Assembly: GCA_964595565.1 (NCBI GenBank)
Contig: CAZQQX010000001.1
Span: forward strand, 8,074 to 72,073
Length of the DNA stretch: 64,000 nt
Direction of reading: 5' to 3'
From: an uncultured Actinomycetota bacterium
GTDB taxonomy: Bacteria > Actinomycetota > Humimicrobiia > Humimicrobiales > Humimicrobiaceae
The translations under genes were made by a program, and so were the position numbers. The first letter of the stretch is position 1, and each line of letters opens with the position of its first letter. The notes beneath the pieces were generated by a model. The model had not been told where the DNA came from, did not search any database, and was given only the letters and a program-made list of their open reading frames with translations. Below are positions 14,017-20,126 of this stretch, piece by piece.

Positions 14017-15075
14017 ATGAACATCAATGATATTTTACTTGAGGCCATAAATGTAAATGCATCGGATGTACATATTGTATGTGTCCTCCCCCCTATATTC
14101 AGGGTACATGGAAATCTGGTAAAGTTAGAAAAATTTGGAGATATTACTCCTGAACTGGCAGAAAAAATGTTAATCAGGATATTAAATGAAGAACAAATTA
14201 AAAGGTTAAGGGAAGGGCTGTCTGTTGATTTCTCTCATACTATATCGGGCTATGGGAGATTCAGATGCAGTTATTATTATCAGAGAAACACACTTGCAGC
14301 TGCTTTTAGATACATATCAAGAGTAATTCCATCTGTTGAAGAACTCGGTTTACCCCTTCAGATTAAAGAATTTGCAAAATATCCGCGGGGTCTCGTGCTG
14401 GTTACGGGCCCCACCGGTTGCGGTAAGTCAACGACACTTGCGTCCATAATTGAGATAATAAATCAAAACAGGTCTGAAAATATAATAACCGTTGAAGACC
14501 CTATAGAGTATCTGTTTACACATAAAAAAAGTATAATATCCCAGAGAGAAATATTGGCGGATGCTCATTCATTCGCAGATGCCCTTAAATATGTTTTGAG
14601 GGAAGACCCGGATGTTATAATGGTGGGAGAGATGAGGGACCTGGAGACAATATCAAGCACTCTTACTGCTGCAGAAACCGGGCACCTTGTTTTTTCTACC
14701 CTTCATACCCAGGACGCGCCCCAGACCATTGATAGGATAATAGATGTATTTCCAACTCATCAGCAAAGGCAGGTAAGGGCACAGCTTGCCGGAACTTTAA
14801 AGGCAGTACTGGTGCAACAGTTATTAACTACAAGAGAAGGTGATGGAAGGGTGCCTGCAACAGAGCTTATGTTCGTTAACGATGCCATAAAAAATATGAT
14901 AAGAGAAGTAAAGGTGCATCAGATTTATTCATCAATACAGGCGAGCGGCAGGAGGGGTATGATGACCATGGATATGTCGCTGGTGAACCTCTATAAGGCA
15001 GGAAAGATTTCAGAGGAAACGGCGCTGGAAAAGGCACACAGCGTAGAAGAGGTAAGAAGAATGATTAATGGCTGA
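14017..15075 (+). CDS. pilT: Type IV pilus retraction ATPase PilT
   Basis: Walker A GPTGCGKSTT, TVEDPIEY, LREDPDVIMVGEMRD, TGHLVFSTLHT and the PilT signature AIKNMIRE. It lacks the long N-terminal domains of PilB. Confidence 0.93.
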   Translation: MNINDILLEAINVNASDVHIVCVLPPIFRVHGNLVKLEKFGDITPELAEKMLIRILNEEQIKRLREGLSVDFSHTISGYGRFRCSYYYQRNTLAAAFRYISRVIPSVEELGLPLQIKEFAKYPRGLVLVTGPTGCGKSTTLASIIEIINQNRSENIITVEDPIEYLFTHKKSIISQREILADAHSFADALKYVLREDPDVIMVGEMRDLETISSTLTAAETGHLVFSTLHTQDAPQTIDRIIDVFPTHQQRQVRAQLAGTLKAVLVQQLLTTREGDGRVPATELMFVNDAIKNMIREVKVHQIYSSIQASGRRGMMTMDMSLVNLYKAGKISEETALEKAHSVEEVRRMING

Positions 15076-15110: not shown

Positions 15111-16340
15111 ATGACAGTATACAATTATACGGTTAGGGATTTAAAAGGTGAGTCAATTAAGGGTTTTATAGATGCCGAAACACAGGATGTTGTTGAATCA
15201 AAGCTAAAGGACATGGGCTATTTTATAATCAATATTGATAAAGCAAAAGAAGAGAAAAAGCTCAAATTAAAAGGCTCTTCAGAAGGTTTTAGTTTTTTTA
15301 ATCGTATAAAAATAAGAGATATGGTTATTTTCACCAGGCAGTTTTCTACTCTTATTTCTTCGGGGATGTCCTTGCTTGAATCGCTTATTGTTCTTGAAAG
15401 GCAAACCGCGAATCTTAAGTTAAAAAAAATAATTTCAGAAATAAGGGTATACGTGGAATCGGGCCATTCACTATCAGAATCAATGGAAAACCACCCTAAA
15501 GTTTTTAGCAGGTTATATGTAAGTCTGATAAGGGCAGGCGAGGCGGGAGGCGTGCTTGATAGGACCATGAATGACCTGGCAAATTTCCTTGAAAGAGAAG
15601 AGGAATTGAGATTAACCATAAGAAATAAAACAGCTTATCCAAAATTTATTCTGGTTTTTGCTGCAATTATATCTATTGTGATGATAGTATTTCTGGTTCC
15701 TACTTTTGAAGGTATATATGAAGAGCTGGGAGCAGAGCTTCCGGGAATTACAAAAGCGGTTATGGCAGTAGGCGGGTTATTTAAAAATATATATTTTTAC
15801 CTTATTCTGGTAGTTGTTGTATTTGGTGGAAGATATTTATTTAAAAAATTCGTAAGTTCAAAAAAGGGAAGACACATAATGGATAGTGTAAAAATTAATT
15901 TGCCGAAATTTGGTGACCTCTTTAGAAAAATGTCGCTGGCAAGATTTGCGAGACATTTTGGGATATTGCTTGCCACCGGGGTTCCAATATTAAATTCACT
16001 GGAAATTGCCAAGGGAGTTGCGGACAATGTTATTATTGATGAAGCACTTGAAGAAATAAGGACCAGTATAAGAGAAGGGGAAAATATTTCTGATCCCATG
16101 TCAGGCATATCTATTTTCCCTGATATGATGGTACAGATGATAGGGGTGGGGGAAAGGACCGGTACGCTGGATAGCATTTCAAGTAAAATTGCGGATTTTT
16201 ATGATAACGAAGTGGCAAATACCATAGATATGCTGGTAACAGTGCTGGAACCCCTGATGCTTTTGTTTGTAGCGGGGTTTATAGGTATAATTGTAATATC
16301 AATGTATCTTCCGATGTTTAATATATACCAGGCAATGTAA
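15111..16340 (+). CDS. pilC: Type IV pilus platform protein PilC (GspF family)
   Basis: FTRQFSTLISSG, AGEAGG and GERTG...LEP motifs; two GspF repeats and three TM segments. Confidence 0.93.
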   Translation: MTVYNYTVRDLKGESIKGFIDAETQDVVESKLKDMGYFIINIDKAKEEKKLKLKGSSEGFSFFNRIKIRDMVIFTRQFSTLISSGMSLLESLIVLERQTANLKLKKIISEIRVYVESGHSLSESMENHPKVFSRLYVSLIRAGEAGGVLDRTMNDLANFLEREEELRLTIRNKTAYPKFILVFAAIISIVMIVFLVPTFEGIYEELGAELPGITKAVMAVGGLFKNIYFYLILVVVVFGGRYLFKKFVSSKKGRHIMDSVKINLPKFGDLFRKMSLARFARHFGILLATGVPILNSLEIAKGVADNVIIDEALEEIRTSIREGENISDPMSGISIFPDMMVQMIGVGERTGTLDSISSKIADFYDNEVANTIDMLVTVLEPLMLLFVAGFIGIIVISMYLPMFNIYQAM

Positions 16341-16383
16341 AATTAATAAAACATTTTTTTAATGGCATTATTCAGATTTAATC

Positions 16384-17193
16384 ATGGAAAAATTAAAATC
16401 AAAAAATTATGATACGGACAATATATTAAGGTTAAGAAATCTTACTGTGGAAGAATTAATAAAGATATATAAAAATACAGGCAGTTCTGAAATATTGAAT
16501 ATAATACTTGAAAAAACAAAGAAGCTTGCCTATAAGGTTGTTTCTGATTTTAAAATTAATTACTGTGATAGGAAAGACATAAGGCAGGTTGCGCTAACCG
16601 GTCTTGTAATAGCCATAAACAGGTTCAATACAGGTGTGGATACCAGGTTCTCCACTTTTGCCGTTAACTATATAAAAGGCGAAATACTTCACTTCATAAG
16701 AGATAACCGCCTGGTAAAAAGCCCACGGTGGTTGTGGAAGCTAAATAAAATATTCACCGAATATGTTAAAAAATATGAAAATCAAAATAATAGTTACCCT
16801 ACCATAGAGGAAATTTCAGAAGGAATAAATATACCGGTAGAAGGAGTAAATGAATTCTTAAAAGCCAGAGAGGCAGCCTTTTACAATAACAGGAAAATAA
16901 ATGATTGCGCCGGGGGTAACGGTAATAAAGCAGAAGATAATTTAAGTTATGATAGGAGCCTTATAAGGTCAAAGGAGTATAAAAGTTTTGACCTGGTAAT
17001 GGAAGATAAAATAATATTATGGGATGCCATAGACAGGCTGCATAAATTAAACAAAAAAATACTGGTTCTAAGTTATTTCCTGGGATTCAGCCAGGAGGAA
17101 ATAGGTAAGAAAATAGGAATTTCGCAGAAATCGGTTTCCAGAAAACTAAAAGAGAGTATAAAGCAGCTAAAAGAATACTTCGCGTGCAACTAA
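16384..17193 (+). CDS. Group 3 sigma factor, SigB/SigF/SigG-like
   Basis: Region 2: DIRQVALTGLVIAINRFN...RFSTFAVNYIKGEILHFIRD. Region 3: YPTIEEISEGINI. Region 4: SQEEIGKKIGISQKSVSR. Confidence 0.85.
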   Translation: MEKLKSKNYDTDNILRLRNLTVEELIKIYKNTGSSEILNIILEKTKKLAYKVVSDFKINYCDRKDIRQVALTGLVIAINRFNTGVDTRFSTFAVNYIKGEILHFIRDNRLVKSPRWLWKLNKIFTEYVKKYENQNNSYPTIEEISEGINIPVEGVNEFLKAREAAFYNNRKINDCAGGNGNKAEDNLSYDRSLIRSKEYKSFDLVMEDKIILWDAIDRLHKLNKKILVLSYFLGFSQEEIGKKIGISQKSVSRKLKESIKQLKEYFACN

Positions 17194-17249
17194 TTTTTTT
17201 GCCCCGAATTTAAAGATTTACCGGATACCCGATAAATATTTAATTATTA

Positions 17250-17278
17250 TTGACAAATATGTATGAAATAAATATTAT
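17250..17278 (+). promoter_or_regulatory. sigmaA-type promoter upstream of the major pilin
   Basis: TTGACA (17250-17255)-N17-TATTAT (17273-17278). Confidence 0.6.
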
Positions 17279-17385
17279 TGTATAATAAATAATTTTATAA
17301 TTTTATATTTTATTATATAATAATTAAATATAATTTTTAATTAATATATAATTTTCTATATTTAGGAATATAAATATAAATAAAT

Positions 17386-17410
17386 GTCTAAAAATTTTAT
17401 TTAAGGGTAT
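17386..17410 (+). promoter_or_regulatory. SigB-type promoter upstream of the major pilin
   Basis: GTCTAA (17386-17391)-N13-GGGTAT (17405-17410), one mismatch from the Bacillus SigB consensus GTTTAA-N12-14-GGGWAW, 55 nt before the pilin ATG. Confidence 0.55.
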
Positions 17411-17465
17411 AATAATATAATGAATAATAAAAAAATAATTTTCTATCAAATAAAGGAGGTAAGAA

Positions 17466-17876
17466 ATGAAGTGGTTATACAGGCATATGCATAAGGATGA
17501 GAAAGGATTCACACTTGTTGAACTTATGATAGTAATCATAATACTGGCAATCCTTACTGCAATTGCTGTACCGAGCTACATGGTATTAAGAAACAGGGCA
17601 AGGATAGCAGCAGCTCAGAGCGAATTAAAGAATATCGCCACTGCTCTGGAGATGCACTACGCGGATAAGGAAGCTTATCCGGCAACTACCTTTGCGGCAC
17701 TGGTGACAGCACTTGAAGGTGGTGCATATATGGATCCGGTACCTCCAACCGACCCATGGGATACTGGCTATGTATACACATTAGCTGCTGGTTCTTATAC
17801 CCTGGAAAGCTATGGACCGGATAAAGCGGACGCCGGTGATGACGATATAGAAATAATAGATGGGCAGCTGCAATAA
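17466..17876 (+). CDS. pilA: Major type IV pilin with GspG-like C-terminus
   Basis: Class III signal KDEKG/FTLVELMIV with Glu5; C-terminal DPWDTGYVY...SYGPDK..GDDDI as in the T2SS GspG family. Strong SD (GGAGGT), with its own promoter and terminator. Confidence 0.85.
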   Translation: MKWLYRHMHKDEKGFTLVELMIVIIILAILTAIAVPSYMVLRNRARIAAAQSELKNIATALEMHYADKEAYPATTFAALVTALEGGAYMDPVPPTDPWDTGYVYTLAAGSYTLESYGPDKADAGDDDIEIIDGQLQ

Positions 17877-17926
17877 TAGTGGCGATATAATACAAATTAT
17901 ATCGGAGTAAAAATAATATAAAAAAA

Positions 17927-17970
17927 TAAATTAAGAGGTAGTTATTAAGACTGCCTCTTAATTTATTTAA
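17927..17970 (+). terminator. Intrinsic terminator after the major pilin
   Basis: TAAATTAAGAGGTAG / CTGCCTCTTAATTTA stem followed by a T-rich tract. An A-tract upstream means it could be bidirectional. Confidence 0.8.
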
Positions 17971-17993
17971 ATTTCAGGTCAATATTTTAATTT

Positions 17994-18022
17994 TTGACTA
18001 AAGAAAAATACCATGTTATTAT
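17994..18022 (+). promoter_or_regulatory. sigmaA-type promoter for pilD-pilMNOP-aroCKB
   Basis: TTGACT-N17-TATTAT with an extended -10 TG at 18014-18015, just downstream of the pilin terminator. Confidence 0.6.
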
Positions 18023-18187
18023 TAAAAGATAAAAAAAATTATATAAATTTATATTATTAAAATATTAAAGTTATACAGGAAAAATAATTTTTTAAAATTA
18101 TTATTCAATTATAATAAATATAGCAATATAATAGAAAAAATATAAATTTACCGATTGTAAAAAAACTGTAATAAAGTAATAAGCAAA

Positions 18188-18949
18188 ATGGAAATATATA
18201 AAGTATTTTTATATATAATATTTATTACATGCGGCCTTACTGCAGGCAGCTTTCTTGGAGTTGTTGCATACAGGCTTCCCCGTAAAATATCTATAATAAA
18301 GCCGCGTTCATTTTGCCCCCATTGCAGAAAAGAGATTCCTTTTTATGATAATATTCCTGTAATTTCCTATATTATGCTCAGGGGAAGATGCAGGTTCTGT
18401 AAGAATAAGATACCGGTAAATACACTATTAATAGAATTAATAACCGCAATAGTATTTGTATTAAATTATATTTTTTTTGGTTTATCCGTAAAAACAATAA
18501 GCGGGATTATTCTATGCATCGTTCTGATAGTAATATCTTTTATTGACATTGAATTTCAAATAATACCAAATGCGATAATACTTCCATTTACCATTGTGGG
18601 GCTGGCATTAAGCGTTTTTTTAAATTTAGAAAGATGGTGGATGCCTCTTGCATTCGGTGCCGGGGCTTTTTTGTTTATGCTTATAATTCACCTTATAATT
18701 CCCCGGGGAATGGGAATGGGTGATGTCAAGTTAAGTCTTATGGCAGGAGTGTTTCTGGTAAGGGATGTGATACCGGCACTGTTTCTGGGGTTTCTGACAG
18801 GTGCATTGTATGGTGTATTGCTGGTTATCGCAAGAAAAAGGAAATTAAAACAGCTAGTAGCATTCGGGCCCTTTATTTCACTGGGAAGTATAATTGCTTT
18901 ATTTTGGGGTAATAATATTTTAAAATGGTATGTAAGTTTTTTAAAATAA
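18188..18949 (+). CDS. pilD: Prepilin peptidase / N-methyltransferase
   Basis: PRSFCPHC...GRCRFC zinc motifs, FIDIE and GMGMGDVKL catalytic Asp residues, and AFGPF. Confidence 0.95.
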   Translation: MEIYKVFLYIIFITCGLTAGSFLGVVAYRLPRKISIIKPRSFCPHCRKEIPFYDNIPVISYIMLRGRCRFCKNKIPVNTLLIELITAIVFVLNYIFFGLSVKTISGIILCIVLIVISFIDIEFQIIPNAIILPFTIVGLALSVFLNLERWWMPLAFGAGAFLFMLIIHLIIPRGMGMGDVKLSLMAGVFLVRDVIPALFLGFLTGALYGVLLVIARKRKLKQLVAFGPFISLGSIIALFWGNNILKWYVSFLK

Positions 18950-18956
18950 AAAGAGA

Positions 18957-20126
18957 GTGATTAAAATGCTGGCAGTAGGATTAAATTTAAGTTCATCAAG
19001 ATTAAGTATTGTTGAGCTTTTAAAATCAAGAAATGGCTTTACTATTGCGAATATGGCAAGAGAAGAGATACCACCGGACTGTATGGTCAAAGGGGAAGTT
19101 CAGGATGCACAAATTCTTTCAAACAGTTTAAAGGAAGTCTGGAGAAAAAATAAGATTTCTGACAGGAAAGTCTTCATCGGAATTGCAAACCAGAAAGTGA
19201 TTGCAAAAGAAATCCGGATACCGGTTATAAATGACGATGAAATAAAGAATTCCATACAATACCAGATCAGTGATTTTATTCCCATACCCAGGAATAATAT
19301 TTTATATGATTATTACGTGGTTGAAAAAGGAGAGGACCATTCAAGAATAATGCTGGTAGGGGCGATGAAGAGCATGATAAATGATGTGGTTTCAAGTTTT
19401 AAAAAGGCCGGTCTGCTCGCACAGGCTATTGATTTAAACTGCTTTGCATTATACAGGACGGTAAACTATATAAAAGGAATTGAAAAAGATAAAGATGTAA
19501 AGAACAAGCATACAGCTTTTTGTGTCGCGAACCTTGGAGTGGAAATTTCAATAATAGAGATGATACAGGACTATAACTTAAAATATCCGAGATTTACGTC
19601 TACTTCTATAGGAAGCTTTACTAATGAGATTTCAAAGGAAACAAAAAAAGATGATAAATATTGCGGGGAAGTATTATCAAAATTTGATTTCAAATCCCTG
19701 CTGTTAAAGAAAAACGAACCAGAAAAGAAGAAGAAAGAAACCGGAGATTCTTTCATTAAACCTGAAGAAAAAGAGAGTAAAAATTCCGGTAAAGATAAAG
19801 TTAAAGATGAGCCTGACAGCGATAAAGTGAAAGAAATAATAAAAAGCACCACGGATAGGTTTATAGGGGAAATTAAATTATCGGTGGAACACTTCTTACA
19901 GGAAAATCCCAAATCAAGTGTGGGGAAAATTATTTTAACCGGTGAATATATAAGAAATATTGATAAATATATAGAACAGGAAATAGAATATAAAGTTGAA
20001 ATGTTAAATATAAACGATTATTTTCCATTAAAAAATATTAAAATAGCTGCGGGTTATAGTGAAGACGGGGGTTACATGCTTGACCCGGTAGCTATAGGCA
20101 TGGCATTAAGGGGCTTAAATCAATGA
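18957..20126 (+). CDS. pilM: Type IV pilus assembly protein PilM
   Basis: Actin-like N-terminus (VGLNLSSSRLSIVE), IQYQISDFIPIP, IILTG and C-terminal VAIGMALRG; first gene of an M-N-O series. Confidence 0.85.
   Translation: MIKMLAVGLNLSSSRLSIVELLKSRNGFTIANMAREEIPPDCMVKGEVQDAQILSNSLKEVWRKNKISDRKVFIGIANQKVIAKEIRIPVINDDEIKNSIQYQISDFIPIPRNNILYDYYVVEKGEDHSRIMLVGAMKSMINDVVSSFKKAGLLAQAIDLNCFALYRTVNYIKGIEKDKDVKNKHTAFCVANLGVEISIIEMIQDYNLKYPRFTSTSIGSFTNEISKETKKDDKYCGEVLSKFDFKSLLLKKNEPEKKKKETGDSFIKPEEKESKNSGKDKVKDEPDSDKVKEIIKSTTDRFIGEIKLSVEHFLQENPKSSVGKIILTGEYIRNIDKYIEQEIEYKVEMLNINDYFPLKNIKIAAGYSEDGGYMLDPVAIGMALRGLNQ

Follow-up and report, generated by a model that had tools for sequence, protein, structure and literature searches.

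Organization of the type IV pilus locus

We analyzed a type IV pilus locus on a 64,000-nucleotide (nt) stretch of DNA, referred to below as the window, from an uncultured bacterium of the Humimicrobiaceae (Actinomycetota), in which a sigma factor gene is placed between genes for the pilus machinery and the gene for the major pilin. The element under study is the promoter of this pilin gene, and in particular a pair of short sequence blocks that resembles the promoters read by sigmaB-type factors. The window belongs to a genome of 1.66 Mb whose assembly is 96.5% complete and not closed. Positions refer to the window, and the parts of the locus from pilT to the terminator behind the pilin gene are given on the + strand. 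The genes of the locus are co-oriented and follow each other in the order pilT, pilC, sigma factor gene, prepilin gene, prepilin peptidase gene, pilM, an unnamed open reading frame (ORF) and pilO. The two machinery genes upstream of the sigma factor gene are pilT (14017-15075; Pfam T2SSE, 4.8e-49) and pilC (15111-16340; Pfam T2SSF, 3.1e-62). The sigma factor gene itself (16384-17193) encodes a protein of 269 amino acids (aa) assigned to the SigB/SigF/SigG family (group 3; best match TIGR02980), which is the proposed reader of the pilin promoter. The pilin gene (17466-17876) encodes a prepilin of 136 aa (Pfam N_methyl, 5.7e-10, and T2SSG, 8.6e-13; TIGR02532 domain).

The gap between pilC and the sigma factor gene is 44 nt in the window. 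In two relatives of genus g28 (G090 and G091; loci L100 and L102) only 2 nt lie between the stop codon of pilC and the start codon of the sigma factor gene (ATGTGAtcATG), which suggests translational coupling of sigma to pilC in this genus. Because of these short gaps, the sigma factor gene is predicted to be co-transcribed with pilT and pilC as one operon. The sigma factor gene and the pilin gene are separated by an intergenic spacer of 272 base pairs (bp; 17194-17465) with a GC content of 13%, and of 7.5% over positions 17241-17452.

A sigmaB-like element precedes the pilin gene

The original prediction placed a SigB-type element, GTCTAA-N13-GGGTAT, 55 nt before the ATG of the pilin gene (17466), and all parts of it were found there. 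The hexamer GTCTAA (17386-17391) forms the larger part of the -35 element ATGTCTAA (17384-17391) and is followed by a 13-bp spacer (17392-17404) which among relatives is variable in sequence and constant in length. The -10 element GGGTATAAT (17405-17413) consists of GGGTAT (17405-17410) overlapping TATAAT (17408-17413). GGGTAT was also said to stand out in the AT-rich spacer, and the GGG at 17405 is indeed the only G triplet within the 272 bp. With the GGG numbered -15 to -13 as in the open complex of Staphylococcus aureus sigmaB (PMC11156646), position +1 falls near 17420 and transcription is predicted to start at 17417-17420. The sequence block TAATG(T/A)A(C/T)AATAA (17418-17430), which adjoins this predicted start, is conserved.

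Promoters of sigmaB in Staphylococcus and Bacillus are described as GTTTWW, about 14 bp and GGGWAW (PMC11156646), and those of the nine SigB homologues of Streptomyces coelicolor as G(N/T)(N/T)T-N12-15-GGG.A., including GGGTAT, with the GGG and the A at the fifth position almost invariant (PMC8346170). The proximal pilin site fits GGGWAW in its -10 element, including the near-invariant GGG and the A at position 5. Its -35 hexamer agrees with GTTTWW at five of six positions (C at position 3) and fits the actinobacterial GNNT, and the 13-bp spacer lies inside the range of 12-15 bp of SigB/SigF-type promoters. The motif GTYTAA-N13-GGGTAW has a single match in the 64-kb window (0.07 expected), and only 1.8e-4 matches to a relaxed consensus are expected from the composition of the spacer itself. 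A genome-wide scan, which the original prediction had suggested as a way of defining a regulon, showed that the 1.66-Mb genome has the strict motif only once, as does each of the sigma-bearing genomes.

The possibility that GGGTATAAT is a general -10 variant of this genome was ruled out: it is not enriched upstream of genes, and 31 of its 38 genomic copies lie within coding regions. Within oriented upstream regions GGG precedes TATAAT five times (4.9 expected), and TGn precedes TATAAT 2- to 3.4-fold more often than expected (67/611). The proximal site does not look like a promoter of the housekeeping sigmaA, as TATAAT is present but preceded by GGG rather than TGn, and no sequence at 16-17 bp from TATAAT 17408-17413 agrees with a sigmaA -35 at more than two of six positions.

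The element is conserved together with the sigma factor

To place the element in a wider context, 80 genomes of the family were surveyed and the DNA upstream of every fetchable orthologous pilin gene was tabulated. The relatives are metagenome-assembled genomes of Actinomycetota, one of them labelled Candidatus Humimicrobiaceae. An alignment of the spacer from the window and six relatives (alignment A1; sigma identity 66-95%) showed conserved blocks in an otherwise freely diverging sequence: ATGTCT.A, then after 13 free bases GGGTATAATA, then TAATG.A..ATAA and the Shine-Dalgarno sequence. The -35 element of the window belongs to the first of these blocks, and no part of the spacer is better conserved than the SigB-type element. 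In the window, the Shine-Dalgarno sequence AAGGAGG (17453-17459) lies in an unstructured 5' leader, and its GGAGG is conserved among the aligned sequences.

The pilin site could be read in 21 sigma-bearing genomes from five genera, and all 21 carry G(T/A)C(T/C)(A/G)A-N13-GGGTATAAT before the pilin gene, one of them with GGA in place of GGG. The -35 hexamer is GTCTAA in 17 genomes, GTCTGA in two and GACTAA and GTCCAA in one each, and the -10 element is GGGTATAAT in 20 and GGATATAAT in the remaining one (G084, the genome with GGA). A second set was formed by 36 sigma loci on metagenome contigs with enough downstream sequence. The pattern [AT]TGTCT[AG][AG]-N13-GGGTATAAT followed by a pilin gene is present in 35 of the 36, GTCT being kept in 35 and GGGTATAAT in all. 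The exceptional locus (L173) keeps GGGTATAAT and has lost the -35 element by a deletion (L173:423-720), which joins the TATACTTAA region of a distal promoter to the spacer and removes GTCTAA. Exactly 13 bp separate the two elements in every one of the 21 genomes, and likewise in the 35 metagenome loci with the full motif. A pattern with a 12-bp spacer matched no pilin site in the family search, so the spacing appears to be strict. Neither the sigma protein (51-100% identity) nor the pilin (50-77%) is as well conserved as the promoter.

In four genomes of genus g7 (G017, G064, G066 and G070), which are 82-98% complete, the whole assembly lacks a sigma orthologue. The gene order pilC-pilin-pilD is retained in them, pilC being the immediate upstream neighbour of the pilin gene, and their spacer is clearly homologous to the one in G067 and G069, two g7 genomes with the sigma factor. 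In all four the site reads ATGTTTGA-N13-AAGTATAAT, with the hexamer GTTTGA replacing GTCTAA. Sigma-bearing and sigma-less sequences show eight fixed differences in 254 aligned columns. Four of these lie in the 12 hexamer bases, and the end of the spacer and the predicted start have one each. Six more distant sigma-less genomes (G020, G054, G055, G057, G075 and G093) have unrelated pilin promoters, which belong to the sigmaA type and carry a TGn extended -10 (one example is TTGACA...TGTTAAAT). The original prediction had staked its reading on the conservation of GGG upstream of orthologous pilins, and GGG turned out to be kept with the sigma factor and lost without it. Among same-phylum sigma matches of 26-32% identity, where both genes were listed, the pilin matches were neither on the same contig nor close.

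The adjacent sigma factor resembles the SigB/F/G type

The window sigma has regions 2, 3 and 4, and its best named model is TIGR02980 (SigBFG, 1.2e-39). Among solved structures it is closest to 1L0O (sigmaF) and 8X6G (S. aureus sigmaB). The genome has five sigma70-family genes: SigA, two of about 207 aa which are taken to be ECF-like from their size, a SigI-like gene with an RsgI-like gene, and the window sigma, which is the sole sigma factor of the SigB/F/G type. Behind the SigI-like sigma (232 aa) comes a protein of 234 aa whose N-terminus was read as RsgI-like (L082:383-1782, genome contig C2), and no other sigma/anti-sigma-like pair was noticed in the genome.

In the S. aureus sigmaB open complex the -10 element is contacted by R110 (-15G), R100 (-14G) and R97 (-13G), with the flipped -11A held by F79 and F86, and the -35 element by R241 (-35G), S235 (-34T), M237 (partner of -33T) and Q236 (partner of -32T) (PMC11156646). 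These residues were mapped with HMMER and MAFFT alignments of the window sigma against S. aureus sigmaB (8X6G). On the -10 side R110 and R100 are kept as R115 and R106, R97 is changed to His (H103), F86 is kept as F92 and F79 corresponds to V85, a position that is variable among orthologues. On the -35 side R241, S235 and Q236 are kept as R253, S247 and Q248, and M237 is replaced by Lys (K249; Arg in some orthologues). R74 of S. aureus sigmaB is also kept. Over eleven orthologues, down to 50% identity, R80, F92, H103, R106, R115, S247, Q248 and R253 are invariant. The sole changed -35 contact (Met to Lys/Arg) faces the sole base at odds with the sigmaB consensus (GTTTAA to GTCTAA). By analogy with the homologous structure, Lys or Arg at position 249 could bond the guanine opposite the -35 C.

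The presence of a regulatory partner was also considered. No RsbW/SpoIIAB-type kinase (PF13581) scored above the cut-off in the genome, the only trace being one sub-threshold match of 24 bits inside a 643-aa open frame, and no STAS protein (PF01740) was matched, so the partner-switching control known from Bacillus appears to be absent. As neither an anti-sigma nor a STAS protein of this kind was found and the sigma factor gene is apparently co-transcribed with pilT and pilC, control of the Bacillus SigB stress type is unlikely.

An apparently very small regulon

A relaxed scan of the window's genome gave 106 matches, mostly in coding sequence, and the only credible extra site lies before a second pilin paralogue (contig C14:124-498; 52% identical to the pilin), where GTTTAA-N13-AGGTATAAT is found at C14:16-43. 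This site resembles the major pilin promoter, and its sequence recurs at the end of contig C19. Across the family, a looser pattern with 13-bp spacing gave 52 matches against about 20 in the control and again found the major pilin and the second pilin paralogue.

Several other candidates were not retained. GTTTGT-N12-AGGTATAAT in the 3' end of pilC was ruled out as an autoregulatory site, since it is not conserved and is also found in a sigma-less genome; no conserved site precedes the sigma factor gene. In genus g4, GTCTAA-N13-TGGTATAAT is conserved 65 nt before the gene of an unnamed membrane protein (L130, L131 and L132, from genomes G043, G044 and G045). It was not counted as a third sigma target, as the TGG gives it the look of an ordinary sigmaA promoter with a TGn extended -10. 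Two distant homologues of the sigma factor (P0076 and P0077) were ruled out as pilus-linked, being sporulation sigF genes beside spoVA; the true SigF relatives sit in a STAS-protein/sigF/spoVA context. A distant locus on a metagenome contig (L174:1-2840; Ga0315284_10096272), with a sigma factor 35% identical to that of the window, carries the 3' end of pilC, two small ORFs and two tandem paralogous sigmas of the same kind. The small ORFs resemble a toxin-antitoxin pair, as read from sequence alone, and the contig ends before any pilin gene.

A possible second, distal promoter and the limits of the pilin unit

According to the original prediction the pilin gene has a dual promoter, which would give a basal and an induced output of pilin and the distal part of which is a sigmaA-type TTGACA-N17-TATTAT at 17250-17278 (TTGACA, 17250-17255; TATTAT, 17273-17278). 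This sequence agrees with 11 of 12 consensus positions and is the best sigmaA match in 16300-18300. TTGACA-N17-TATWAT occurs once in the window (0.06 expected), and looser sigma70-like matches in the AT-rich stretch are at chance level (14 against 13.2 +/- 3.7 expected). TTGACA-N17-TATTAT is common only to the closest relative (G010/L001; sigma 95% identical). In most other relatives, with or without the sigma factor, the distal region contains another sigmaA-like promoter, TTGCAA/TTGACA-N17-TATACT, which lies some 50 nt ahead of the proximal -35 and is seen in sequences of genera g1, g4, g7 and g28. In the window a TATAAT at 17329-17334 aligns with the TATACT of this family promoter, in the form TTGCAA-N17-TATACT (alignment A1, columns 151-200), and the -35 is degenerate. 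The two-promoter layout thus recurs in the family, while the distal site singled out by the original prediction is lineage-specific. A dual promoter is plausible for the window, and 17250-17278 is possibly a lineage-specific sigmaA promoter, for which a start near 17285 is predicted.

A weak imperfect hairpin after the sigma factor gene (17210-17243; -7.0 kcal/mol, z -2.7) could act as a leaky terminator; a terminator scan flagged it on the minus strand only, and it is poorly conserved in L001. Downstream of the pilin gene a strong intrinsic terminator (17925-17975; 19-bp stem, -22.7 kcal/mol, z -8.1, followed by a U-rich tail) closes a single-gene pilin unit. Beyond it, TTGACT-N17-TATTAT at 17994-18022, with TG just before the -10, is found upstream of the prepilin peptidase gene (18188) and is likely a sigmaA promoter of pilD-pilM-pilO, separate from the pilin unit.

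Weighing the readings of the proximal site

We consider ATGTCTAA-N13-GGGTATAAT (17384-17413) to be probably a dedicated pilin promoter read by the sigma factor encoded in the locus. Conservation, co-occurrence and the contact residues support the original proposal that the adjacent sigma factor reads the proximal promoter; less secure is its proposal for the distal one. The original prediction had itself cautioned that the overlapping TATAAT might be a sigmaA -10. This caution holds, TATAAT being invariant even in the sigma-less relatives; since it is present with and without the sigma factor, sigmaA could use the proximal -10. The housekeeping alternative would have sigmaA initiate at TATAAT 17408-17413, with ATGTCTAA as the site of an activator or another protein and the GGG incidental or part of that site. 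It can point to the four sigma-less genomes which keep the site and its TATAAT, to the site of the paralogue, where TATAAT is kept while the GGG varies, and to the G at -14, which amounts to half of an extended -10. Against it stand the lack of a usable -35 and of a TGn, although TGn is the enriched housekeeping feature of this genome and is used by the sigma-less relatives with other promoters. Further points against it are the loss of GGG in the sigma-less sister clade, as opposed to its retention in 20 of 21 sigma-bearing genomes (the last one has GGA) and in every one of the 36 metagenome loci, and the invariant block spacing of 13 bp, which is the spacing of sigmaB-type promoters. We regard the housekeeping alternative as unlikely.

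Three further explanations were examined. Given that distal sigmaA-like promoters exist in the window and most relatives, and that conservation runs on downstream into TAATGTACAATAA, the blocks ATGTCTAA...GGGTATAAT...GTACAATAA might act in the RNA, as a riboswitch, processing site or small-RNA site in the 5' leader of a transcript from the distal start. This idea was rejected because RNAalifold found no pairs, and no covariation either, in 12 diverse promoter-leader sequences. An Rfam scan of 16000-19000 gave no match at E values up to 1, the predicted fold of the leader (17417-17470) is no more stable than that of shuffled sequence (z 0.2), and a pair of conserved blocks around a spacer that is constant in length and variable in sequence is what a promoter typically looks like; a role in the RNA is thus very unlikely. 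Reading of the promoter by another sigma factor, whether ECF-like, SigI-like or missing from the assembly, is most unlikely: the assembly is 96.5% complete and four other sigma70-family genes are present, but none of the SigA, ECF-like or SigI-like types is known to read GTTTWW/GGGWAW and the motif tracks the presence of the adjacent sigma factor. Loose promoter-like matches do occur at chance level in this AT-rich region, but a chance origin of the site is effectively refuted by its conservation in more than 50 loci, next to the expectation of 1.8e-4 for the spacer and the single copy in the genome.

A number of observations weigh against reading by the locus-encoded sigma factor. The link between sigma factor and promoter is drawn from sequence comparison. 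The sigma-less clade with a homologous site probably represents a single evolutionary event, and because the sigma factor gene and the promoter are neighbours, their co-occurrence could reflect one inherited block. At the paralogue site the triplet is GGG in five sigma-bearing relatives, AGG in three and another triplet in four, yet a perfect GGG is present in the sigma-less genome G066. This variation weakens the argument that GGG implies the sigma factor, and TATAAT alone may be sufficient at the paralogue site. The window sigma is below the curated cut-off of every SigB/F/G model, with 136 bits against 234 for TIGR02980 and 120 against 261 for the NCBIfam SigF subfamily model NF005644. It is likewise below the cut-offs of the FliA/WhiG, RpoS and RpoH models and passes only that of the broad sigma-70 superfamily (TIGR02937). 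Finally, F79 of the sigmaB pocket for -11A is not conserved.

Comparison with known systems

The proximal site and the window sigma share with S. aureus sigmaB (8X6G) the two-block layout, the short spacer, GGG-T-A-T at -15 to -10, apparently the sigma family and the residues R100, R110, R241, S235 and Q236. They differ in the third base of the -35, which is C and not T, and in the replacement of M237 by Lys/Arg and of R97 by His. The window's genome also has no RsbV/RsbW partner-switching genes, its sigma factor gene lies inside a pilus locus, and the regulon apparently comprises one or two pilin genes, as opposed to a general stress regulon. The SigB homologues of actinobacteria, among them Mycobacterium tuberculosis SigF, which has been named a sigmaB orthologue (PMC11156646), come from the same phylum and read the same promoter class. 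They have roles in stress and differentiation, many cross-recognized promoters and anti-sigma partners, whereas the window sigma looks like an orphan with a single target.

In function the closest parallel, by analogy, is cyanobacterial SigF and pilA1. In Synechocystis PCC 6803, stringent recognition of the pilA1 promoter by the group-3 SigF relies on TAGGC at -32 and on GGGTAAG, whose GGG occupies -15 to -13, and sigF is autoregulated (PMC2532724). Both cases combine a group-3 sigma factor, a major type IV pilin, a GGG-containing -10 (GGGTAAG compared to GGGTAT in the window) and a very small regulon, which for the window sigma is predicted. The -35 elements differ, with TAGGC in an AG-rich stretch in Synechocystis and GTCTAA in AT-rich DNA in the window, and the autoregulation of sigF has no counterpart in a conserved site before the window's sigma factor gene. 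In Rubrobacter, a switch of sigmaWhiG, RsiG and c-di-GMP drives several pil operons from TAAA/GCCGATAA promoters (PMC8325347). There too an alternative sigma factor controls pil genes in a deep-branching actinobacterium, but that factor is of the FliA type and is held by the RsiG anti-sigma with c-di-GMP. No motif of the TAAA/GCCGATAA type is present in 17194-17465, and the window's genome yielded no RsbW- or STAS-type anti-sigma partner, RsiG itself not having been searched for.

In flagellar systems FliA/sigmaD is encoded with machinery genes and turns on the filament subunit flagellin, subject to the FlgM checkpoint. The logic proposed for the window sigma is the same, with another sigma subfamily, another promoter and another filament. 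A counterpart of the FlgM checkpoint was not seen in the window, nor was one looked for.

A proposed pilin switch in the Humimicrobiaceae

The observations are consistent with a model in which the proximal element would be the core promoter of the single-gene pilin unit, of the sigmaB/sigmaF type, with transcription starting at about 17417-17420. The machinery operon containing pilT and pilC would make the sigma factor, and RNA polymerase with this SigB/F/G-family sigma (16384-17193) would then read the pilin promoter and switch on the abundant filament subunit. The regulon would essentially be the pilin gene, possibly with the second pilin paralogue. The overlapping TATAAT would be part of the extended -10 of this sigma factor or would allow some sigmaA initiation. 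An orphan SigB/F-like sigma factor without an anti-sigma partner, whose regulon is the pilin promoter, may well form a self-contained type IV pilus switch of the kind 'machinery first, subunit second' throughout the Humimicrobiaceae and, judging from L174, in other lineages of uncultured anaerobes. In the literature we found no description of a sigma factor gene inside the type IV pilus locus of the Humimicrobiaceae lineage, nor of such a module.

The control of pilin output in Gram-positive and uncultured bacteria is poorly known, and the site described here offers a compact and testable case, consisting of one sigma factor gene, a promoter of about 30 bp and sister genomes with natural, putative loss-of-function variants of it (GGG to AAG, C to T). 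It also yields a specific residue-base prediction, namely that Lys249 lies opposite the third base pair (C:G) of the -35. If the proposed reading is true, the sigma/promoter pair would be orthogonal with apparently a single target, and the principle of a sigma factor dedicated to a filament subunit, as represented by cyanobacterial SigF and flagellar FliA, would extend to the type IV pili of a deep actinobacterial lineage.

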